From positions 169,972 to 233,971 of the forward strand of contig JAKAEA010000001.1 of NCBI GenBank assembly GCA_021818465.1: DNA of 64,000 nucleotides, read 5' to 3'. The stretch comes from a bacterium. GTDB taxonomy: Bacteria > Patescibacteriota > Minisyncoccia > Phycocordibacterales > JAKAEA01. The translations under genes were made by a program, and so were the position numbers. Under the pieces are notes generated by a model, which was not told where the DNA came from, did no database searches, and worked only from the letters and a program-made list of their open reading frames with translations. Positions 2,989-60,081 of this stretch are shown one piece after another; within the stretch, counting starts at the first letter, position 1, and every line of letters begins with the position of its first letter.

Positions 2989-3450
2989 TTACCGGTCGCT
3001 CCATTCGCGGCGGATTTGACGTTCGGTATCACGCTTCTTAAGCGTTTCGCGCTTATCAAATTTTTTCTTGCCGCGCGCCAAAACAATTTCCACCTTCAGT
3101 TTTCGTGCTTTATTATACACTGAAATAGGCACTATTGTCAATCCTTTAGCGGAACCAGTGCCAACGTTGGCTAAACGGCTGATCTCAACTTGAGTTAAAA
3201 GGAGTTTGCGTGGTCGATCACTAGAAGCTTCACTGTTGCCTCCAGCTATATTACCGGGTTGATAAGGTGGAATGGTCATTTTTTCTAACCAGACTTCGCG
3301 GCCGCGTACTACAATATAGGCGCCATCTAATGAGCCGCGGCCAGCACGAAGTGATTTTACTTCTGCTCCGTTAAGTTCTATACCAGCTTCAAAATGCTCC
3401 AAAAATTCGTAGTTAAAACTGGCTTTTCGGTTGGAAATCAAGGCTGCCAT
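2989..3450 (-). CDS. smpB: SsrA-binding protein SmpB
   Basis: 153-aa product with the SmpB family signature (GIELNGAEVKSLR...GREVWLEKMTIPPY) and a basic C-terminal tail. Next to ssrA. Confidence 0.9.
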   Translation of the reverse strand: MAALISNRKASFNYEFLEHFEAGIELNGAEVKSLRAGRGSLDGAYIVVRGREVWLEKMTIPPYQPGNIAGGNSEASSDRPRKLLLTQVEISRLANVGTGSAKGLTIVPISVYNKARKLKVEIVLARGKKKFDKRETLKKRDTERQIRREWSDR

Positions 3451-3506
3451 TTTCTTGTAGTATCATCCTAGCAAATCTTTGCTCAGTATTGTAGAATGTA
3501 GACCCT

Positions 3507-5582
3507 ATGACAGAAGATATCTCTCTAGAAGAAAACAATTCAAACGAGGAGCCAATGGCAGAAAATCCAGTAGTAGAGAACGAAGAGCAAAACTTCGAGG
3601 AGCCCTTTCTTGCCTCTGAGCAAGATCATGAATCAACCACTGAACCTCGTCGCGATTCTCTTTCGCCACGGCAGCCTCATAATGGTCAACGTCCACCCAA
3701 TCGTCGCCCCACCAACCAATTTATACGAAACATTTTAACGGGTTTATTCATCTTACTCATTATTGTTAGTGTCTATTCGCTCATTGCTGGTAATCCGAGT
3801 AGACATAATAAGATTCCGTTAACGCAAGTAGCCAGTGATGTAAATGCTGGTAAAGTCACTGAAATTGATGTTAATGGGGATGCACTCACCGTTCACTATG
3901 ACACTACCGATACTATTGTTAAAAAATCGCAAAAAGAGGACAGCAGTTCACTTATTGCCCAACTACAAGGTTTGGGTGTTCCGTCAAATAAAATTGAAGC
4001 GGTAACTATTAATGTGCAAAGCCCTAGTGGTTGGAGCTATTGGCTAACCAATATTATTGTTCCTATTGTTTTGCCACTTATTCTTTTGTTGGCTCTAGCG
4101 TGGTTTATTACTCGTCAAATGCGCGGCGCTGGTATGCAAGCATTTACTTTCGGTCAGTCAAAGGCGCGTATTATTTCACCTGACGATACTAAACAGCGCG
4201 TGACCTTTAAAGATGTGGCTGGTGCTAAAGAAGCCAAAGAAGAACTTATGGAAATCGTGGATTTTCTTAAGAATCCAAGAAAATTTATTGAAATTGGTGC
4301 ACGTATTCCCAAAGGCATCATTTTAATGGGTCCCCCTGGCAGTGGAAAAACCCTACTCGCCCGAGCCGTCAGTGGGGAAGCGCGCGTTGCTTTCTTCTCT
4401 ATTTCCGGTTCGGAGTTTGTGGAAATGTTTGTGGGTGTTGGCGCCAGTCGCGTGCGTGACTTATTTAAACTTGCTAAACAAGCGGCACCGGCGATTATCT
4501 TCGTTGATGAGATTGACGCGGTGGGCCGGGTGCGCGGCACAGGTGTCGGTGGTGGTAATGACGAGCGCGAACAAACGCTCAATCAAATCCTTGTGGAAAT
4601 GGACGGTTTTGAACCAAATGAAAAAGTGATTGTGATGGCCGCCACTAACCGTCCTGATGTTCTTGATCCAGCTCTTTTGCGTCCTGGTCGCTTTGATCGG
4701 CGTGTGGTGATTGATCTACCTGATCGTCAGGATCGTTTCGATATTTTACGCATTCATGCGCGAATGAAGCCGTTTGCCGAAGATGTTAACCTCGAAGTTA
4801 TTGCTGAACGCACCCCCGGCTTTAGCGGTGCCGATCTTTATTCGCTTATGAACGAGGGCGCGATTTTAGCTGCTCGCGAAAATCGTACACGCGTTTCGCA
4901 ATACGACCTCATTCGTTCCATTGAAAAAGTTATGCTTGGGCCAGAGCGCAAAAGTCACATTCTCTCTAAACACGAAAAAGAAATTACCGCATATCATGAA
5001 GCGGGTCACGCTCTGGTTGCATCAATCTTGCCGTATGCTGATCCTGTTCATAAAATTTCTATTATTTCTCGTGGCCGTGCTGCTGGTTACACGCTCAAAT
5101 TACCACTGGAAGATCGTAAACTTCAGTCGCGCAAGGAATTTCTTGATGATATCGCTATGTCGCTGGGTGGATATGTTACGGAGAAAATTGTTTTTGGTGA
5201 TATTACCACTGGTCCGTCTAATGATTTGCAAGTTTCTACAGCAATGGCTCGCGATATGGTTACGCGCTATGGTATGAGTGAAAAACTCGGCGCTATCGCT
5301 CTTGAGGGAGAAGGTGGTCGCGCGCTTTTTGGTCGCGGTCTAGAAGATAAGGAACACTCCGAAAAAGTTGCTGGTGAAATTGATGCGGAAGTCGCCCATA
5401 TTATGAGTGAATCGCTTAAGCGTGCCGAAGACATTATTAAGAAACACCGTCCGCTTTTGGATGTGATTGCCAAGCGTCTCATTGCTGTGGAAACTATAGA
5501 GCGTGCCGAGTTTGATCAAATGCTCACTGCGCACGGTATCACCTTAAAGAAAAAAGAGGTTGAGGTTGAAATAAAAAAATAA
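3507..5582 (+). CDS. ftsH: ATP-dependent zinc metalloprotease FtsH
   Basis: AAA+ Walker A (GPPGSGKT), Walker B (IIFVDEIDA), second region of homology, HEAGH zinc motif. Two TM segments. Unusually long acidic N-terminal extension (~75 aa). Confidence 0.95.
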
Positions 5583-51454: not shown

Positions 51455-51546
51455 CAGTCTAGAAAAGTATCGAAGGACCCAAAGGGGTCATATTTGCCCG
51501 CTCTTTGTGGGCTGCTTCGATATGCGAGATAATTCCCACATTCCTG

Positions 51547-52521
51547 ATGGCTAAAAAGAAAAAGAAGAAAAATTCAGGTCCCAAAAATCAGCACTTCGTA
51601 CCCAGGTGCTATCTTTCGGAGTTTACAGACCCCAACACCCCTGCAGGTCAGGAGCCCTACGTCTGGGTGTTTGATAAAGACGGTAAGAATCCTCGAAAGA
51701 AGGCCCCTAAGAATATCTTTACCGAAACGCATCTGTATACCTTCGAATTCAACGGCGAAAAGGACTTCACCATAGAAAAGAGCCTTTCAGCCATCGAGTC
51801 AAAATACGCTTACATTTTCCGTAGCAAGATCAAAGAGAAAAAGCCCCTTTCGGAGTCGGAACACGCCTATCTCTGTGCCTTCGTGGCGGCACAACTGCAA
51901 CGCACTCTGCGGTTCAAACAAAACCAGGAGAATTTCATCCAGCAGCTTATCGATCATGGCACTCAGATGGCGATGGCCCATGGGGTGACCGATTCTCCGC
52001 AGGTCCGCGCATGGCAGGAGTACAAAAAGGACATCCATAAATTGCAGCTCGTGGATGGTATTCCGTTCTTAGCAAATATTCTCATGCAGATGAGTCTGGC
52101 GTTCCTTTGCTCAAAGAATCCGAACAAAAACTGGTTCATTACCTCTGACGATCCGTGCGTGTTATTCAACCCCGACCTCCAGTGGCAGAAATTCTACGGT
52201 CCCGGTTTTGGGCAACAGAATGTGCAGCTTACTCTGGCTTTAAGTCCGGAGATAATCGTTATGTTCACGTGGGCGAACTTCCATGGCTACTCGTACGTTG
52301 ATGGCGGGAACGTAGATAATATGCTCAACCGAATGACTCGAGCCCATGCTGATAAGGAATTCATCTCGCCTTATCCAAAGAAGAAATGGATATGGTTCAG
52401 CCGTGTTCCGCTTGACCCCTTCTTTCTTCTGAAAGTCGTAAAGAATGAGACCAAAGTGTTCCTGCATCGTGTGAGGAATAATTGGCAGTATAGGAAAATA
52501 TATGCGAGACGCAGAAAGTAA
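51547..52521 (+). CDS. DUF4238-like protein, paralog 1
   Basis: N-terminal HFVPRCYLSEF (HxxPxxYLxxF) and downstream TSDDP motif, the pattern I associate with DUF4238. Lys-rich N-terminus. ATG at 51547. Confidence 0.5.
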   Translation: MAKKKKKKNSGPKNQHFVPRCYLSEFTDPNTPAGQEPYVWVFDKDGKNPRKKAPKNIFTETHLYTFEFNGEKDFTIEKSLSAIESKYAYIFRSKIKEKKPLSESEHAYLCAFVAAQLQRTLRFKQNQENFIQQLIDHGTQMAMAHGVTDSPQVRAWQEYKKDIHKLQLVDGIPFLANILMQMSLAFLCSKNPNKNWFITSDDPCVLFNPDLQWQKFYGPGFGQQNVQLTLALSPEIIVMFTWANFHGYSYVDGGNVDNMLNRMTRAHADKEFISPYPKKKWIWFSRVPLDPFFLLKVVKNETKVFLHRVRNNWQYRKIYARRRK

Positions 52522-53398
52522 TTTCAAACAAGCCCTTGATGGGATTGTTGGGTCAAGTCGATCCGATCAAAAAAAGATAGAGGCGATCAGCGAACTGATT
52601 GCTGGCTTGAACACGCTCGAACAGAACCCTGAAATTCGCCTCGCTACCGAAACGGGAGCTGTGCTGGCGCGTAAGGCAAACAGGCCAGAAATGGCTGCGC
52701 AGCTTTGTCTTATGAGAGCTAAGGCAGAGATTGCTCAGGCGGGTGAGCTGATAGCCGAAATGAAGAACCTTAAAATGGCGATAGATTGGCGCGGTTTTGC
52801 CCTTGAGAAAGCAGCAAATCGGCACAAAGACTTAGAAAAGAAGTTGAACGCAACATGGAGTGCCACTCAGGCGTTTATCGATGCAGGCTACAAGCTACTT
52901 AATGAAAAGCCATACGTTGGAGCGGCCGCTTACTGCCACGATGCTGCAGGTCAGATTTATGGCCAGCATTATCTTCAGCTGAAACTCTACTACCTAACAA
53001 CAGGAAGACCGTGGCGTGCACGAATCGGGAATTACAAAATCAGCCGGTGGCTTAGCCTAGACGACTTTTTCGTGATTGATAAAAAGTCTCGCGCACATCT
53101 CCGAAAGGTTCGGAAGGATTGTCTAACCTCGCTTCACCAGGCAATGAAGCTCTATCGACAGATTAAGGCGCGAGATTATATAATCGACACGTACCTTGAC
53201 CTGGCTCTTGAGCATCATTCTTTTAATGATGCGATTCAGAGCAAGTTTTATCTTCTTCTTGCAAGGATGTTAATGAGCGTATGGGGTCTCTCGAATAATT
53301 CTCGACTTAAGCCGAGGCTTAAGTCGCTAGAAAAACTGCCTCTGATTGGCAGCGATCGGAACGATGATATTAGTCGACAGTTACCAAACCTTTCGTGA
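52502..53398 (+). CDS. hypothetical alpha-helical protein (partner of DUF4238 paralog 1)
   Basis: 298-aa ORF overlapping the upstream gene by 20 nt (translational coupling). No recognisable motif. Confidence 0.4.
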   Translation: MRDAESNFKQALDGIVGSSRSDQKKIEAISELIAGLNTLEQNPEIRLATETGAVLARKANRPEMAAQLCLMRAKAEIAQAGELIAEMKNLKMAIDWRGFALEKAANRHKDLEKKLNATWSATQAFIDAGYKLLNEKPYVGAAAYCHDAAGQIYGQHYLQLKLYYLTTGRPWRARIGNYKISRWLSLDDFFVIDKKSRAHLRKVRKDCLTSLHQAMKLYRQIKARDYIIDTYLDLALEHHSFNDAIQSKFYLLLARMLMSVWGLSNNSRLKPRLKSLEKLPLIGSDRNDDISRQLPNLS

Positions 53399-54647
53399 TT
53401 TTTAGCTTGGTTCGAAGGCAGTCCATCAGGTCGCGCTTCTCGAATATTGACCCTTCTGTCAGGAGGTACTTTGCATAGTTCCGTATATCGGCATCTTTCA
53501 CGGAATAGTTCTCATCAGCTTTGCCCATAATCCCTGAATGGAATTTCTTATGCCGCTCGATCTCGGCTTCAAGTTTCTTCTTGATACCTGATCGTTCCAG
53601 ATCAATTACATCAAAGATTCTTAGGAATTCTTTAATAAGCACTTTCTCTTCGGTATATCCTTCTTTGCAGTTGATGTTTCGGGAACGGGTGCAGCCGTAG
53701 TAAATGTATTTGGCGACGGAGCCGTCTTTAAGAGATTTGAATTTCTCCTGGGCGGTTATTCCTGAGCCACAAGCTCCACAGGAGAGGAGACGGGTGAAGG
53801 CAAATTCTTTATTTCGATTCTTCGATTTGACTTGGAGATGAAGCTGCTTCTGTACCTCCTCGAACAACTCCTTAGAAATGAGCGGCGTGTGCTTGCCCTG
53901 GAACCATCTGCCGCTCGCTTTCGGGTATTCAAATGTGCCGTAGTAGAAATGGTTATTCAGAATGACGTAGACGTTGCTCAAGGTGAGTGGCTTTCCGGTG
54001 CGGGTCTTGAACTTAATGTCTTTAAGCCATCGGTATACTTTTCGGCCGCTCCAGCCCTCGTTAGCTACTTTTTGAAAGAGGTCCTTGATAACAGGAGCTC
54101 TATCTGGGTCTACGAATACGACACCTTTCTGGTCTTTGTTTTTGGAGTTGAGATAGCCGGTTGGAGCGACACTTGGCCAAAGCCCGAGCTCGCACTTAGT
54201 CTTGAGGCCGCGCTTCACATTAATGCTCTTATTGTCGTTCTCGAGTTTTGCTTGGCTGCCGAGAATCATCAGGAGGAACTTCTCGTTTGGGTTGTTGGTA
54301 AACCGCTGGCTGTAGGTACGGATCTCTAAGAGCTTCTTCTGATCGAAGAGGTCCACGATCGCACCAAGGTCTCCCGCGTTGCGAGAGAGGCGGTCGGGGT
54401 GCCATACGAGGATTCCATCGAATTTGCCCTCACGGATATCCATCAGAAGCTTGTTGAAAACAGGCCGCTGGCCGGCATCCTTTGCGGAGTGCGACTCGCG
54501 ATACATATCGACCACATTCAGTCCATCTCGCTGGGCGAGGCTCAGCATCTCCTTGAGCTGGGAATCTATCGAAAGCGCCTGTTTCTCCTCGGCCTCGCTC
54601 GATTTCCGGGCATATAGGCAGTACCTGACGGGGTCCTGGTTTTCCAT
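53370..54647 (-). CDS. large serine recombinase (resolvase catalytic domain, recombinase domain, zinc-ribbon)
   Basis: N-terminus MENQDPVRYCLYARKSSEAEEKQALSIDSQ has the catalytic Ser in the YARxSS context. It continues DGILVWHPDRLSRN. Recombinase domain and a Cys pair (CGACGSG...CTRSR) follow. Start at the internal Met at 54647 preferred over the 498-aa ORF. Confidence 0.85.
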   Translation of the reverse strand: MENQDPVRYCLYARKSSEAEEKQALSIDSQLKEMLSLAQRDGLNVVDMYRESHSAKDAGQRPVFNKLLMDIREGKFDGILVWHPDRLSRNAGDLGAIVDLFDQKKLLEIRTYSQRFTNNPNEKFLLMILGSQAKLENDNKSINVKRGLKTKCELGLWPSVAPTGYLNSKNKDQKGVVFVDPDRAPVIKDLFQKVANEGWSGRKVYRWLKDIKFKTRTGKPLTLSNVYVILNNHFYYGTFEYPKASGRWFQGKHTPLISKELFEEVQKQLHLQVKSKNRNKEFAFTRLLSCGACGSGITAQEKFKSLKDGSVAKYIYYGCTRSRNINCKEGYTEEKVLIKEFLRIFDVIDLERSGIKKKLEAEIERHKKFHSGIMGKADENYSVKDADIRNYAKYLLTEGSIFEKRDLMDCLRTKLKITKGLVTVD

Positions 54648-54741
54648 ACAACACAACACATGCCCGAAGCGAGGGAAGAAGTCCAGTGGTGGATAGGTGG
54701 TAACTTTCAAGTGAATTTGACTTTGATCCATTTGATGCATT

Positions 54742-55053
54742 ATGATGGTAGGTATGGAAGAGTCAGTTTCTGGATACAAAGCAGTCAAGCGGCTTGCAGT
54801 AGAGCGGCCTGATTGGCTCCCCATTGTTCGAGAATGCTTGAATTTGCGGAAAGAGATCCATAACACCGATTTCGCTGGTGCATGGGTATATCAGCGCCTT
54901 CAAGAAAAGGGCGGACCGAAATTTTCAAACCTGCGTCTTCTTGTTAGCTTTGGCATCTTGAAGAAAGAGGCAACTTCGCGCGGTGGTCGACGCGCGTACT
55001 ATTCTTTCGTAGATCCTGAAGGGGTTGAGCGGGCACTTGGCGAGTTGAAATAA
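54742..55053 (+). CDS. small hypothetical protein, possible winged-helix DNA-binding protein
   Basis: 103-aa ORF divergent from the recombinase and immediately upstream of the MTase operon. The basic C-terminal half RLLVSFGILKKEATSRGGRRAYYSF is winged-helix-like. Confidence 0.3.
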   Translation: MMVGMEESVSGYKAVKRLAVERPDWLPIVRECLNLRKEIHNTDFAGAWVYQRLQEKGGPKFSNLRLLVSFGILKKEATSRGGRRAYYSFVDPEGVERALGELK

Positions 55054-55057
55054 TTTT

Positions 55058-56155
55058 ATGAAAGCGAAAGTTGCAAATACAAGCCTTCACGGCGCGAAAA
55101 AGGCGAAGAAAGACGAGTTTTACACTCAACTCGTCGATATCGAAAAGGAGCTGAAGCACTACAAAGACCAGTTTCGCGGCAAAGTAGTCTATTGCAATTG
55201 CGACGACCCATTCGAGAGCAATTTCTTCAAATATTTCGCCGCAAATTTCAACGCGCTCGGATTGAAGAAACTCATCACGACAAGTTTTGTAAAATCGCCT
55301 ATCGCTGGCGGGCAGTTGCCGCTCTTTGAAATGCAGGGACTAAAGCCCGACGGCAAAGAGCCGTTCAAAATTGAAATACGGGAAGTACCTGACGCAGACG
55401 GCGACGGCGCGATCAACCTTGATGACGTGAAGTATCTACTACAACACGACAAGAACACCGCAATCCCGCTGAAAGGCAACGGTGATTTCCGTAGCGACGA
55501 ATGCATAGAATTTCTTAAAGAGGCGGATATTGTTGTGACAAACCCGCCATTCTCGCTTTTCCGCGAATACATTTCGCAATTGGTAGAACATAATAAAAAA
55601 TTCCTTATCATCGGCAATATCAACGCCGTCACTTACAAAGAAGTGTTCCCTTTGGTTAAAGCAAACAAATTGTGGCTTGGCGCAAGTATCCATAGCGGCG
55701 ACCGTGAGTTTAGAGTGCCGGAAGACTACCCGCTAAACGCGGCCGGATACCGAGTTGATGGAGAAGGAAACAAATATATTCGCGTCAAAGGTGTGCGCTG
55801 GTTTACAAATCTTGATTATGACGAGCGCCACGACAGCATTGTGCTTTACAAAAAGTATTCGTCAAAAGAGTATCCGAAATACGATAACTACGACGCCATA
55901 AACGTGGATAAGACCGTCGATATTCCAATGGACTACAAAGGCGCTATCGGCGTACCAATTACTTTTCTTGATAAATACAGCCCCGACCAATTTACAATTT
56001 TGGGCGCGTTGATCTCCGGCCCACTCGGACAAGAGTTAGGAGCGACCAAAACGAAACAAATAAGGCCAAACGGAAAAACGACGATGGAATACGGGCCCAT
56101 TATCAAGACCAAAGGTTATTACGGAAGAATTGTCATTAAAAATAAAACACTATGA
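55058..56155 (+). CDS. putative N6-adenine DNA methyltransferase-like protein (gamma-class order: EFYT motif X then NPPF motif IV)
   Basis: DEFYTQ near the N-terminus and DIVVTNPPFS at about aa 165. No textbook glycine-rich motif I visible; VVYCNCDDPF occupies that position. Contains a DADGDGAINLDD loop. Confidence 0.5.
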   Translation: MKAKVANTSLHGAKKAKKDEFYTQLVDIEKELKHYKDQFRGKVVYCNCDDPFESNFFKYFAANFNALGLKKLITTSFVKSPIAGGQLPLFEMQGLKPDGKEPFKIEIREVPDADGDGAINLDDVKYLLQHDKNTAIPLKGNGDFRSDECIEFLKEADIVVTNPPFSLFREYISQLVEHNKKFLIIGNINAVTYKEVFPLVKANKLWLGASIHSGDREFRVPEDYPLNAAGYRVDGEGNKYIRVKGVRWFTNLDYDERHDSIVLYKKYSSKEYPKYDNYDAINVDKTVDIPMDYKGAIGVPITFLDKYSPDQFTILGALISGPLGQELGATKTKQIRPNGKTTMEYGPIIKTKGYYGRIVIKNKTL

Positions 56156-57243
56156 AAATCGAGCTACATAAAATCAAAATACGAGAAGTCGTTAACGGCT
56201 TCAAAGACAGCGCCGAGGAAGGTGTCGTGGCGTATGGCGGCAAGCTTGATGTCCGCCCGAAGTACCAGCGCGAGTTCGTCTACAAAGACAAGCAGCGCGA
56301 CGCCGTGCTTGATACGGTCAAGAAAGGATTCCCGCTCAACGTCATGTACTGGATGGTGCGCGAGGATGGCGGCTTTGAAGTGCTCGACGGCCAACAGCGC
56401 ACCATCAGTATCGGCCAGTATGTGAATGGCGACTTTTCGCTTGGCGACCGCTATTTCCATAACCTCATCAAAGAGGAGCAAGAGCAGACTTTGAACTACG
56501 AACTGATGATTTATTTCTGCGAAGGCACGGACAAAGAGCGGCTCGACTGGTTTAGGACTATCAATATTGCGGGCGAGAAACTAACAGACCAAGAGCTTCG
56601 AAATGCCGTGTATACCGGCCCGTGGCTTTCGGATGCAAAACTTAAATTCAGCAAGACCGGCTGCGCCGCGTATCACTTGGCGAACGATGGCGGAGCGCTT
56701 GTGAGCGGCTCGCCGATCCGCCAAGAGTATTTGGAAACTGCGCTCTCATGGATAAACAAGGGCGAGGTGGCGGATTACATGGCGAAGCATCAGCACGACA
56801 AGGACGCCGAGAAATTGTGGGCGTACTTTCAGGACGTAATAGCGTGGGTGCGAAAGACGTTCCCCAACTACCGCAAGGAAATGGCGCACGTGAATTGGGG
56901 CGAGCTGTACAACGAATACAAGGACAAAAAACTAAACGCCACCAAGCTTGAGACCGAGGTCAAGAAGCTCATGCAAGACGAGGACGTAACGAAAAAGTCC
57001 GGCATCTACCCGTATGTGTTGACCGGCAACGAACGCGAGCTTTCTATCCGTGCGTTTACCGACAAAATGAAGCGCGAGGCATACGAGCGGCAAGACGGCG
57101 TCTGCACATTCTGCAAAAAGAAGTTTGATATTTCGGAAATGGAGGCCGATCACATTACACCCTGGCACGAAGGTGGAAAAACAACAGCTGACAACTGCCA
57201 GATGCTCTGCAAACTGGATAACCGAACAAAGTCGGGGAAATGA
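56152..57243 (+). CDS. DUF262 (ParB-like, DGQQR motif) domain fused to C-terminal HNH nuclease
   Basis: N-terminal KYQREFVYK...EVLDGQQRTISI. C-terminal CTFCKKKFDISEMEADHITPWHEGGKTTADNCQMLCKLDN (HNH with Zn-binding Cys). Start overlaps the MTase stop (ATGA). Confidence 0.7.
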   Translation: MKIELHKIKIREVVNGFKDSAEEGVVAYGGKLDVRPKYQREFVYKDKQRDAVLDTVKKGFPLNVMYWMVREDGGFEVLDGQQRTISIGQYVNGDFSLGDRYFHNLIKEEQEQTLNYELMIYFCEGTDKERLDWFRTINIAGEKLTDQELRNAVYTGPWLSDAKLKFSKTGCAAYHLANDGGALVSGSPIRQEYLETALSWINKGEVADYMAKHQHDKDAEKLWAYFQDVIAWVRKTFPNYRKEMAHVNWGELYNEYKDKKLNATKLETEVKKLMQDEDVTKKSGIYPYVLTGNERELSIRAFTDKMKREAYERQDGVCTFCKKKFDISEMEADHITPWHEGGKTTADNCQMLCKLDNRTKSGK

Positions 57244-58922
57244 AATACATGCCTGAGATCGTTCACCAGTTTTCAAATGCAGTGAGCATTATCTTGCACA
57301 ATCCGATCTGGGAAACTCACTCCTCATACAACTTGGGCGTTGCAATCACGGCCATAGCCATAGTTGTTGCGTTTATTGAATTTATTGCAAACAGGCGAGA
57401 GCTAAGATTTAGTTTGAATTACAGAAAGAGACAAATGGCCCTATGGTTTGCTGTTGCGAGCATAGCATTAACGTTTTTGGGAGAATTAGACGGCCTTTTT
57501 CTTGGTTACCCCTTTATTTTTGAGACCAGTGGAGCGGTACTCATGATTGCCGCTATAGCGATTTATCTCAGATTAGTTCTTAGTCCACTCAAACGACTCA
57601 ATAAAAAACAAATCTCCGTCCTACAAGATATTTTGGCCGGAACATTGTCCAATGCTCATTTGGATAAACCACAAATCGTTCGTGGTTGTATGGAGCTATT
57701 TGAAAATTTGCTGGACCTTTCCTTAGACAACAAAGATGTTCGAGGCATTTTCAGAAATGCTTTCGCCAGTGATGTCTTCCTCAAATCTTTTTCTGAATCT
57801 TATTTTGTATTCGGACGTACAGTCGATTTCTATAGGCAGAAAAGAATAGAGGGTGGACACGATTTAGACCATCTTGAATTTTTTCTCAAGCGACTCATGA
57901 CCAAGTCACTTGAGAACGGCGAATCATTCTTGAATATGTTCATTGGACAAAAAATCTATCCAAATGCCCTGTTTTGCCTTGATGATGTGATGATAAACGA
58001 GAAAAACGATTCGGCGCTTCAAACTCTTTTTGGGGAATATGGATATAACGGATTGGATTATGTTGGTCAGTTAAATTACATAGATCTGGTCACTCGTTAT
58101 TTCAGACTGGTTTATCAGGAAAATAATCATATAAGCCTAAAAGACGGATATCAACGAAATTACGAGTTGAATGATGGTCTTATTGGGATTTTCTTTGAAC
58201 AAATCAGCAACTTTATTGAGAGGTGTTATGACCAAAAACACCTTGAGGCTCTGATCGATAAGACGGAGGGTTTTTCGTGGTACTACACCTGGGGGGTCAG
58301 AACTCGAGATAAGAGCGAGCACATAAGAGGAGACACCGGCAAGTTTCTATTTGATGTTTTCTATAACTCTATTAGCAAATACGAGATCGAAAATGAGGAA
58401 ATATTCAGATTGAAAGTACATCAGTTGTACGATCATTTTCTTGAGATGCAGGAGAACGGGGTTGAGAGTAACATCGCTTACGCCGTCTTCGTAGAAAAGT
58501 TAAAGAAAAAAATACTTGGCGACGGAAAGGATGGAGACATGCCAAACTACAAGGGTTATTTCCCGGCAATGATTCTGGTCTATTTCTATATGTTTGGTTT
58601 TTATGCTTTCTCGGAAAAGCAGAATGAGGCACAGGCGAGAGACTTGCACGTACCTGTTTTCTCAAAACTAGCTGAGGCGTTTCCTAAGCTTTATCAAGGT
58701 TTTAAACAAGAATTTTATGATGCGGAAACTCTCCCAGAAGGTAAAAAAGAATTGCTCGAAAAGCAGGGACGAGAGACTTTAGATCAGTTCTTAAAAAAGA
58801 ACATGGTCTATAACTTTGAAGAAAACTCGCTGTCATATTACTACAGCGGCAACGTACACAGCGCAAAAGTATTTCTGAATGATGTTCGCGACAAACAGAC
58901 GATCGAGCCGAAGAGATTATGA
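57240..58922 (+). CDS. hypothetical membrane-anchored alpha-helical protein (operon member 3)
   Basis: 560 aa. Three or four N-terminal TM helices, then a large soluble all-alpha domain and one further hydrophobic segment near aa 440. Start overlaps the upstream stop (ATGA). Confidence 0.4.
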   Translation: MKYMPEIVHQFSNAVSIILHNPIWETHSSYNLGVAITAIAIVVAFIEFIANRRELRFSLNYRKRQMALWFAVASIALTFLGELDGLFLGYPFIFETSGAVLMIAAIAIYLRLVLSPLKRLNKKQISVLQDILAGTLSNAHLDKPQIVRGCMELFENLLDLSLDNKDVRGIFRNAFASDVFLKSFSESYFVFGRTVDFYRQKRIEGGHDLDHLEFFLKRLMTKSLENGESFLNMFIGQKIYPNALFCLDDVMINEKNDSALQTLFGEYGYNGLDYVGQLNYIDLVTRYFRLVYQENNHISLKDGYQRNYELNDGLIGIFFEQISNFIERCYDQKHLEALIDKTEGFSWYYTWGVRTRDKSEHIRGDTGKFLFDVFYNSISKYEIENEEIFRLKVHQLYDHFLEMQENGVESNIAYAVFVEKLKKKILGDGKDGDMPNYKGYFPAMILVYFYMFGFYAFSEKQNEAQARDLHVPVFSKLAEAFPKLYQGFKQEFYDAETLPEGKKELLEKQGRETLDQFLKKNMVYNFEENSLSYYYSGNVHSAKVFLNDVRDKQTIEPKRL

Positions 58923-59821
58923 ATAAACAGAGTCGAAGCCATCATTATCTACCGCGACATTATCTCGAAGGCTTTAAAGGGAGCAACAGCGGTTTTTTCG
59001 TCTACGACAAACAGGAAGATAAAATCTTTCCCTCCAGCCCCGGCGCTACTTTCTTTGAAAATCACCTAAATACCGTCTACCTTCCTGACGGTAAAACCTC
59101 TGTATTCGTCGAAGACCAATACACAAACATTGAGAATGATTGCTGGCCCGCCATAGATAGGATAAGGACCTCCGACAGCAAGACCCTAATTACTCACGAG
59201 GACAAGGAATTCTTGCATCTCTTCTTGTCTTCGCTGTACTGGAGGCTTCCAATAAATTCATCGATGGCAGAGCAGTGGTCCAAGAGTGCATTCACTGACA
59301 CCAGTCCTGTCGATTACTTTCGTCTGAAAAACAAGCAAGGAAAATCGATACCGCGTCACATCGTAGATGCGATTAGGGACTCAGATGCATTCAAAAAATC
59401 ATTCAGATTGATCCTGTCCATGGCTCCTTTTCTCAAGGATAAGAGTTGGGGTCACAAGTTGCAAAACTGGCGATTTTTCTATCACCAAAACGGGCAGCGC
59501 TTCAACATTGTTGGCGATAATCCAATTCTGACCCGAACTGAAAATCACGAAGACCCAGTATCATTGTTGGACGAATTTGTATTTCCACTATCAGCGAGCA
59601 TAACAATCGTTAATACAAACCCCGTTCCAACAAAAGGCCTATCTCCGGAATTTACCCTTCAATTAGGTGTAGCGATGGTAGAGAGGGCGCGGCGGTTCGT
59701 CGTTTCTCACAACAAAGCTTGGCTAGAAGCAGTAGTAGGCCACTACAAAATTTATGCGAACGCGGGAATGAATCACCTGATTCTCGATCAATTATGCCTC
59801 ATGTTGCAACAGGCAGCCTAG
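58919..59821 (+). CDS. DUF4238-like protein, paralog 2 (operon member 4)
   Basis: N-terminal HHYLPRHYLEGF and downstream GDNPIL motif. Start overlaps the upstream stop (ATGA). Confidence 0.5.
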   Translation: MNKQSRSHHYLPRHYLEGFKGSNSGFFVYDKQEDKIFPSSPGATFFENHLNTVYLPDGKTSVFVEDQYTNIENDCWPAIDRIRTSDSKTLITHEDKEFLHLFLSSLYWRLPINSSMAEQWSKSAFTDTSPVDYFRLKNKQGKSIPRHIVDAIRDSDAFKKSFRLILSMAPFLKDKSWGHKLQNWRFFYHQNGQRFNIVGDNPILTRTENHEDPVSLLDEFVFPLSASITIVNTNPVPTKGLSPEFTLQLGVAMVERARRFVVSHNKAWLEAVVGHYKIYANAGMNHLILDQLCLMLQQAA

Positions 59822-59862
59822 CCCCAGTCTTCAGAGCGTTTTTCGGAGCAGTGTTGAAGGCC

Positions 59863-60081
59863 TTATAGAAAATACTCGACCTTCTTTCCGTAAAGCTTCG
59901 CGAGTCGGTTTAGCCAAATAGCCTCAACTCGCAATTCTCCAAGTTCGATCTTAGATACCCAAGACTGTGAACAGCCGAGCTTTTCTGCTACTTCGGCCTG
60001 CGTAAGCCCAGCTTCCAAGCGGGCTTTCTTGAGTTTCTTCACGAACCCGGCCCGCTCATCGGTATGAATGGACTTCTTCAT
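59863..60081 (-). CDS. XRE-family (Cro/C1-type) HTH transcriptional regulator
   Basis: LTQAEVAEKLGCSQSWVSKIE, a classic HTH_3 signature. 72 aa. Confidence 0.8.
   Translation of the reverse strand: MKKSIHTDERAGFVKKLKKARLEAGLTQAEVAEKLGCSQSWVSKIELGELRVEAIWLNRLAKLYGKKVEYFL

Follow-up and report, generated by a model that had tools for sequence, protein, structure and literature searches.

A DUF262-HNH endonuclease gene coupled to an EcoRI-family adenine methyltransferase gene in a Patescibacteriota genome: a probable two-gene restriction–modification cassette

DUF262/ParB-like domains have so far been described as sensors of modified DNA, for example in GmrSD, BrxU, SspE, and Dazbog. In GmrSD, BrxU, and SspE, an N-terminal ParB-like DUF262 domain with a DGQQR motif is followed by a His-Me-finger nuclease, the C-terminal domain being DUF1524; these proteins are about 580 aa or longer and act on modified or phosphorothioate-marked DNA without a cognate methylase. 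Nuclease activity stimulated by nucleoside triphosphates (NTPs) has been documented for this group: BrxU passes through an NTP-controlled dimer/monomer cycle, and the nuclease of SspE is activated through its NTPase (PMC12707154, PMC10952713). The DUF262 proteins NsnA (Menshen), PD-T4-2, and Dazbog carry no fused nuclease and act together with ATPases and effectors. A survey of ParB-DUF262 proteins from 2025 names GmrSD, PD-T4-2, Dazbog, Ssp, and Menshen and does not include a methylase-linked family (PMC12065111); such a family, combining DUF262 with HNH, is likewise unmentioned in PMC4619093 (2015), PMC10952713 (2023), and PMC12707154 (2025). In this study, a gene pair of this kind was analysed in a stretch of 64,000 nucleotides (hereafter, the window; contig JAKAEA010000001.1, positions 169,972 to 233,971) from a bacterium of the Patescibacteriota. 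The two genes, called M and R here, encode an EcoRI-family N6-adenine DNA methyltransferase and a DUF262-HNH endonuclease, respectively. We believe, with a probability of about two in three, that they form a restriction–modification (R-M) pair in which the host DNA is protected by adenine methylation and the HNH nuclease is probably under the control of a ParB-like NTP switch.

The open reading frame (ORF) of R is a genuine gene, because the number of its homologues is far above chance. A word-indexed search gave at least 8000 homologous proteins among the matches listed, and an exhaustive search gave 5613 clusters (50% identity) up to E 1e-3, of which 510 scored E ≤ 1e-30; the proteins were mostly full length at approximately 360–400 aa. 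The initial annotation had described R as a DUF262 domain with DGQQR joined to an HNH domain, and Pfam agreed with this: GmrSD_N/DUF262 (PF03235) was matched at aa 34–154 (E 9.6e-18) and HNH (PF01844) at aa 318–361 (E 2.7e-12), and the HNH family PF14279 was also reported. In an alignment of 58 homologues that were 46–97% identical, the residues of the NTP pocket including DGQQR, those of the HNH, and many residues of the middle region were invariant. The residues expected of an HNH nuclease, namely a D-H general base, a structural Asn, a metal-binding Asn/His, and CxxC zinc ligands, were all present, with D333, H334, N348, and N357 and the zinc ligands C318, C321, and C353. The coordinates of all features are given in Table 1.

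Table 1. Positions of the M-R pair, its parts, and the small upstream ORF in the window (nt, from the first letter of the window)
Feature	Position (nt)	Strand	Residues (aa)	Remarks
103-aa ORF, possible regulator	54742..55053	+		ends 4 nt before M; assignment uncertain
M, EcoRI-family N6-adenine DNA methyltransferase	55058..56155	+		365 aa; directly upstream of R
M, module V1	55283..55462	+	76–135	4 discrete types; absent from M.EcoRI
M, motif IV NPPF	55541–55552	+	162–165
M, module V2	55670..55807	+	205–250	7 discrete types among 70 relatives
M, module V3	56003..56128	+	316–357	hypervariable; 30 types among 70 relatives
ATGA overlap, M stop and R start	56152..56155	+		translational coupling
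R, DUF262-HNH endonuclease ORF	56152..57243	+		363 aa; ATG start
R, N-terminal ParB/Srx-like (DUF262) domain	56152..56616	+	1–155	alignment, Foldseek
R, invariant R35-P36..Q39-R40	56254–56283	+		58-homologue alignment
R, invariant D79-G-Q-Q-R83	56386–56400	+	79–83	58-homologue alignment
R, conserved all-helical middle region	56617..57051	+	156–300	secondary structure, pLDDT (per-residue model confidence) 85–97
R, C-terminal zinc-finger HNH (beta-beta-alpha-Me) nuclease	57052..57240	+	301–363	Pfam, PDB profile match, invariant columns
R, C318-x2-C321 of HNH	57103–57114	+
R, D333-H334 of HNH	57148–57153	+		also N348, C353, N357

The structural statements on R rest on a single AlphaFold2 model (mean pLDDT 86.2) and Foldseek summary scores. 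The model had an alpha/beta N-terminal domain, an all-helical middle (aa ~127–300), and a beta-beta-alpha HNH. When it was compared with the PDB, the top match was BrxU (7p9k_A, E 1.7e-4, probability 0.99), followed by ParB bound to cytidine tri- or diphosphate (ParB-CTPgS 7bnr_A, ParB 7bm8_A, and 6sdk) and the N-terminal regions of Noc, with the Gme HNH nickase and sulfiredoxin at lower ranks. The whole-chain TM-scores were low (0.2–0.4), because the model is multi-domain. A profile search against the PDB matched the HNH to Gme HNH 4h9d (E 8e-7) and also to HNH domains of the Cas9d/IscB type. The N-terminal domain is thus modelled with a ParB/Srx fold and an intact nucleotide-pocket motif of the GxxR type, which is DGQQR in DUF262. 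The initial annotation had staked its proposal on an NTPase fold in this domain, and the BrxU and nucleotide-bound ParB matches together with the invariant DGQQR speak for such a fold. The middle region sits where ParB has its helix-turn-helix (HTH) DNA-binding domain and NsnA has a 'ParBDB' domain (PMC12065111), and by this analogy of position it is probably the candidate DNA-binding or recognition part of R.

A variation was seen in the zinc site of the HNH. The fourth zinc ligand seems to have been relocated between aa 349 (nt 57196–57198) and aa 356 (nt 57217–57219): the clade of the window's R has C349 and D356 (NCQMLCKLDN), homologues of the Lactobacillales type carry L349 together with either Cys or His at 356 (NLQMLCKxCN or KRHN), while both Cys residues are present in some.

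Translational coupling of R to an adenine methyltransferase, the other structural claim of the initial annotation, was also confirmed. M, whose stop codon overlaps the start codon of R, matched EcoRI_methylase (PF13651) over its full length (profile 2–345 of 345, E 3.9e-149) and the PADLOC model MTase_II PDLC03297, 'Type II methyltransferase' (E 8.7e-129), and its NPPF conforms to the catalytic motif (D/N)PP(F/Y/W). In blastp, M was 46% identical over the full length to M.EcoRI, which was taken from an E. coli plasmid (L092) where it lies beside a gene named "type-2 restriction enzyme EcoRI". Relatives of M were up to 54% identical to M.EcoRI and had the C-terminal module in common with it. 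R itself aligned end to end (aa 1–363 with profile 1–372 of 372, E 2.6e-136) with the PADLOC model REase_II PDLC03418, 'Type II restriction enzyme', so that the locus belongs to a family already in R-M profile libraries.

The linkage of M and R was then counted in other genomes. When each GTDB species was represented by one genome, relatives of R were present in at least 573 genomes, and the best 80 loci, chosen by similarity to R (77–95% identical), came from Patescibacteria, Omnitrophota, Bacteroidota, Gammaproteobacteria, Atribacterota, and others. An EcoRI-family M was upstream of R in 77 of the 80 loci; in 62 of these 77 the two genes overlapped or were spaced by no more than 30 nt, mostly overlapping or 1 nt apart. 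The order M then R was kept with differing flanks across genomes of the candidate phyla radiation (CPR). The initial annotation had set the coupling to a methyltransferase against the usual occurrence of the architecture in modification-dependent nucleases; in this large family such coupling is the norm and not unusual, and the mechanistic question raised in the annotation is legitimate.

These results bear on whether R is a Type IV enzyme of the GmrSD/BrxU kind, which would cut modified foreign DNA while the adjoining methylase is functionally unrelated. The DUF262 domain, the best PDB fold match to BrxU, and the fact that known DUF262 nucleases sense modified DNA would fit this explanation. 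However, R is a 363-aa protein whose C-terminal domain is a PF01844 HNH instead of DUF1524, and on this ground we do not regard it as a member of the GmrSD family. No DUF1524 (PF07510) was found in R by Pfam at E ≤ 0.01, the PADLOC models for GmrSD, BrxU, and SspE did not match R, and the profile of R matched the BrxU sequence at E 0.23 only. The likeness to GmrSD and SspE drawn in the initial annotation therefore does not extend to the nuclease half. Because M is linked in nearly all of the loci at tight spacing, the neighbourhood of the two genes is not coincidental, and we consider a Type IV enzyme of this kind highly improbable. The obligate methyltransferase partner of R instead points to a polarity opposite to that of GmrSD, BrxU, and SspE, in which modification would protect. 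The nearest DUF262 match to R in PADLOC was NsnA of Menshen (E 2.2e-22, aa 30–158), in which a ParB-DUF262 domain is also followed by a helical region, and R differs from it and from PD-T4-2 and Dazbog by its fused nuclease.

In the mechanism that we favour, the two genes would make up a compact R-M cassette that moves horizontally, with R as its restriction subunit. M would put an N6 methyl group on adenine at target sites in the host DNA, and R would cut DNA that does not carry the methyl mark, with the helical middle domain probably binding DNA. By analogy with BrxU, GmrSD, and SspE, the binding or hydrolysis of NTP in the DUF262 domain would most likely switch the conformation of R and so license its HNH to act; because the nucleotide pocket is intact and invariant, we argue that NTP binding or hydrolysis would be functional. 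The points in favour are the PADLOC Type II profiles, the conserved order M then R, the tight spacing, the XRE-type controller genes, the invariant catalytic and pocket residues, and the fold match to BrxU and ParB. Two alternatives had been offered by the initial annotation, namely a classical R-M pair with an unusual ParB-like, NTP-driven endonuclease and a system in which the methyl mark tunes an NTP-dependent nuclease; the first, with R as a ParB-like NTP-binding endonuclease, is the better supported.

The pair resembles Type II systems with HNH enzymes (KpnI, Hpy99I, and NlaIII/SphI) in having separate, adjoining M and R genes, an HNH with Cys zinc ligands, and an optional controller HTH upstream. 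At least 14 other loci have an XRE-type HTH ORF (HTH_3-like) 6–18 nt upstream of M, and in this the cassette resembles controller-protein Type II systems; a controller HTH in this place is usual in Type II systems whose R is toxic by itself. Unlike the HNH enzymes of Type II, R adds a ParB/Srx-like nucleotide-binding domain of ~155 aa and a conserved helical domain before the HNH. Orthodox Type II enzymes cut at or near a defined sequence with Mg2+ alone, without NTP, and are blocked by cognate methylation; by the criterion of NTP independence, the intact NTP-binding motif of R may argue against placing it among them. With the EcoRI system the pair has in common a methylase of PF13651. In contrast, the nucleases are unrelated (DUF262-HNH in R, PD-(D/E)XK in R.EcoRI), the order is M then R instead of R then M, and M has the extra or alternative segments V1–V3.

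The Type II profiles of PADLOC derive from REBASE reference enzymes. The characterised enzyme behind PDLC03418 was not found in the literature, and 'Mae7806ORF5066P' (HNH, 13 members) is an unverified candidate for it. CviAII and LlaBI (both 'unknown fold') and Sse9I (PD-(D/E)XK) were considered as characterised counterparts of R and were excluded (Orlowski & Bujnicki 2008).

Several points weigh against a pair in which R restricts DNA that M has not methylated. The characterised DUF262 nucleases are dependent on or sense modification and are not blocked by it (PMC10952713), and no biochemical data on any member of the R family were found in the searchable literature. In two loci R was intact and no EcoRI-family M lay within the fetched DNA (L043, R at 3305–4393, 14 kb fetched; L077, R at 984–2087, 12 kb fetched). 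No palindrome was outstandingly depleted in the pooled flanks of the 80 loci (994 kb), so that no recognition site could be drawn from them. In addition, the presumed recognition region of M is shuffled while R is conserved and does not co-vary with it, which is awkward if both proteins read the same sequence independently.

For the two loci in which M was missing, R could be an orphan nuclease or M could lie elsewhere in the genome. For the target of M, a GAATTC-like site or one with an AATT core is a reasonable guess, because M and its relatives are 46–54% identical to M.EcoRI. Within the window, CATG was the most under-represented 4-bp palindrome, with 113 observed against 187 expected (observed/expected 0.60), and GGATCC (1 observed against 7 expected) and then GAATTC were the next lowest. 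Palindrome counts within the homologous M and R genes were disregarded as non-independent. Because the scarcity of CATG and GGATCC was not seen in the pooled flanks of related loci, other R-M systems in the host probably account for it.

The shuffling of M was examined module by module. M has conserved blocks at aa 16–75, aa 140–200 (with NPPF), and aa 256–315, the last with the motif WFTNLD..RH..LYKKY..YDNYDAINV..GVPITFLDKYNPxQFEI, and the variable modules V1, V2, and V3 lie between or after them. The types of these modules occurred in 47 combinations in 70 loci. Between L003 and L031, the identities of V1, V2, and V3 were 33%, 87%, and 88%, respectively; between L078 and L070, they were 76%, 33%, and 90%; and between L036 and L070, they were 71%, 88%, and 8%. 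Because the segment identities differ module by module, we conclude that the three modules re-assort independently. V2 and V3 lie in what is presumed, by analogy with gamma-class methyltransferases, to be the target-recognition region. V2 ends right before the conserved WFTNLD..RH, whose His is the specificity residue H235 of M.EcoRI; studies have shown that the H235N exchange in M.EcoRI alters DNA intercalation or bending and specificity (PMC2396439). R was much more uniform. The median pairwise identity in 72 loci was 81% for R and 63% for M, the mean identity of R was 0.82 for pairs with the same module type and 0.81 for pairs with different types, and no column of the R alignment co-varied with module type above the permutation null. 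In the metagenome-assembled genome JAYTWI01 (Candidatus Moraniibacteriota GFS_5782), whose bin could be chimeric, there were two cassettes (L037 and L053) with 90.5% identical R and different V2 and V3.

From this mosaic one may speculate that restriction is guided by the methylase, as in Type III systems. R would then have no specificity of its own and would depend on M, bound at an unmethylated site, for its recruitment or activation; the task that a helicase-like ATPase performs in Type III Res would fall to the ParB-like domain as an NTP-triggered switch or a sliding clamp, the HNH would cut, and specificity would be re-programmed by swapping the V2 and V3 modules of M while the nuclease stays constant. 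The reasoning is that, if the modules set specificity, the conserved R cannot read the same sequences independently, which would point to a mechanism guided by M. Beside the independently shuffled modules, the position of V2 against the residue that controls specificity and intercalation, the uniformity of R over the loci, and the genome with two copies, the order of the genes is in its favour: as in mod-res, the methylase gene comes first and the coupled gene of the conserved, NTPase-containing nuclease comes second. However, the comparison with Type III holds only in part. R has no superfamily 2 helicase or PD-(D/E)XK domain (Pfam gave no helicase or ResIII match for it), M belongs to the gamma-class enzymes of the EcoRI type (PF13651) and not to the beta-class Mod proteins of Type III, and no observation here supports a complex of M and R. 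M.EcoRI, to which M and its relatives are 46–54% identical, is a free monomer beside an independent R.EcoRI. The modules V1–V3 could also be tolerant surface loops, and the controller-type HTH genes and the inserts between M and R in 14 of 77 loci fit proteins that act independently. In a control, the EcoRI system and an EcoRI-like system of Klebsiella were 91% identical in R and 83% in M, so that a higher conservation of R than of M is not diagnostic by itself; as an anomaly, it is weakened both by this control and by the choice of loci by R similarity. We therefore think that guidance by M is doubtful, and prefer a pair in which M and R act as separate enzymes.

One fusion of M and R was found, in a metagenomic protein of 688 aa (P0266). 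It was rejected as evidence for a complex, since FPSF stands where NPPF is expected and the normal start of R follows a read-through linker of 20 aa, and it is probably an artefact of gene calling or of an alternative genetic code.

A side observation concerns V1. This module holds a canonical EF-hand/dockerin-like loop, DADGDGAINLDD (aa 112–123, nt 55391–55426), which V1 types A and B carry and which M.EcoRI and the short V1 type C lack. The loop could be a Ca2+ site or a protein-docking element.

The cassette is mobile. Outside the locus set, the M-R pair was found on plasmids of Proteobacteria, Firmicutes, Actinobacteria, and Bacteroidota, in the genera Aeromonas, Macrococcoides, Mammaliicoccus, Variovorax, Gordonia, Ligilactobacillus, and Lactiplantibacillus, with 39–61% identity to R, and also in a Flavobacterium phage. 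One plasmid of 7.5 kb carried MerR-M-R-rep and nothing else. On these plasmids, M is named "adenine-specific methyltransferase EcoRI family" and R "DUF262 domain-containing protein" by PGAP. The short M-R junction is an insertion hotspot: in 14 of the 77 loci it held one or two unrelated genes, and M and R were both intact. The inserts included T5orf172 (L018, L026, L056, L086, and L091), RhuM (L055, L060, and L061), DUF2130 (L018), an AAA_21/AAA_15 ATPase (L090), and a membrane protein (L046, L049, and L055).

Such mobility raises the question of whether the pair is a selfish mobile or addiction module, in which the HNH mainly enforces the maintenance or spread of the cassette, by post-segregational killing or by homing-like cleavage of unmethylated genomes that lack the cassette, and phage defence is secondary. 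R is 77–95% identical between distant phyla, and therefore rampant horizontal transfer must have taken place; the small plasmids, the phage, the serine-recombinase island in the window, and the T5orf172, RhuM, and other mobile cargo at the M-R junction would also fit. However, all Type II R-M systems have such traits and they are compatible with defence, the cassette in the window lies amid defence-type genes (DUF4238 twice), and no target-site or homing signature was found. We regard a mainly selfish role as unlikely, even more so than guidance by M, and keep to the R-M pair that protects host DNA by methylation.

Few R-M cassettes in CPR bacteria have been transferred as widely as the methylase-linked DUF262-HNH cassette, which is also common on plasmids. 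If a ParB-like switch driven by NTP does operate in an enzyme that spares methylated DNA, the range of ParB-fold NTPases would be wider, and independence of NTP would no longer be so clear a mark of Type II enzymes. If R were guided by M, the cassette would stand as a separate kind of R-M system that parallels Type III in function but is built from unrelated parts, and R would be the first DUF262 nuclease for which DNA modification is a block and not a trigger. Through its modular methylase and constant nuclease, the cassette opens a directly testable way towards specificity that can be re-programmed, and it is a probable barrier to the genetic manipulation of Saccharibacteria and other CPR bacteria.

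In the window, the pair lies in a mobile/defence island (51505–60081) adjoining pyrG. The order is DUF4238 with a 298-aa partner, a large serine recombinase (minus strand), the 103-aa ORF, M, R, a 560-aa membrane protein, a second DUF4238, and an XRE HTH (minus strand). Both DUF4238 genes are translationally coupled to their partners, and the 560-aa membrane protein and the second DUF4238 downstream of R are joined through ATGA overlaps. A relative with 95% identical R (L005/L012; L012, the nearest relative of the window's locus, is labelled Candidatus Saccharibacteria) has retained the recombinase, the 103-aa ORF, M, R, and XRE, and has other genes in place of both cargo pairs. The downstream membrane protein and DUF4238 were considered as parts of the system and were rejected, since they are swapped in this relative. 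In other lineages, the flanks of M-R are unrelated; because the flanks vary among lineages, we conclude that the conserved functional unit is M and R, with an optional small regulator in front.

The 103-aa ORF upstream of M had no Pfam, PHROG, or NCBIfam match and was conserved only in the lineage of L003, L004, L005, and L012. It may replace the XRE-type controller of other lineages. Its C-terminal half (LRLLVSFGILKKEATSRGGRRAYYSF) resembles the wing of a winged helix.

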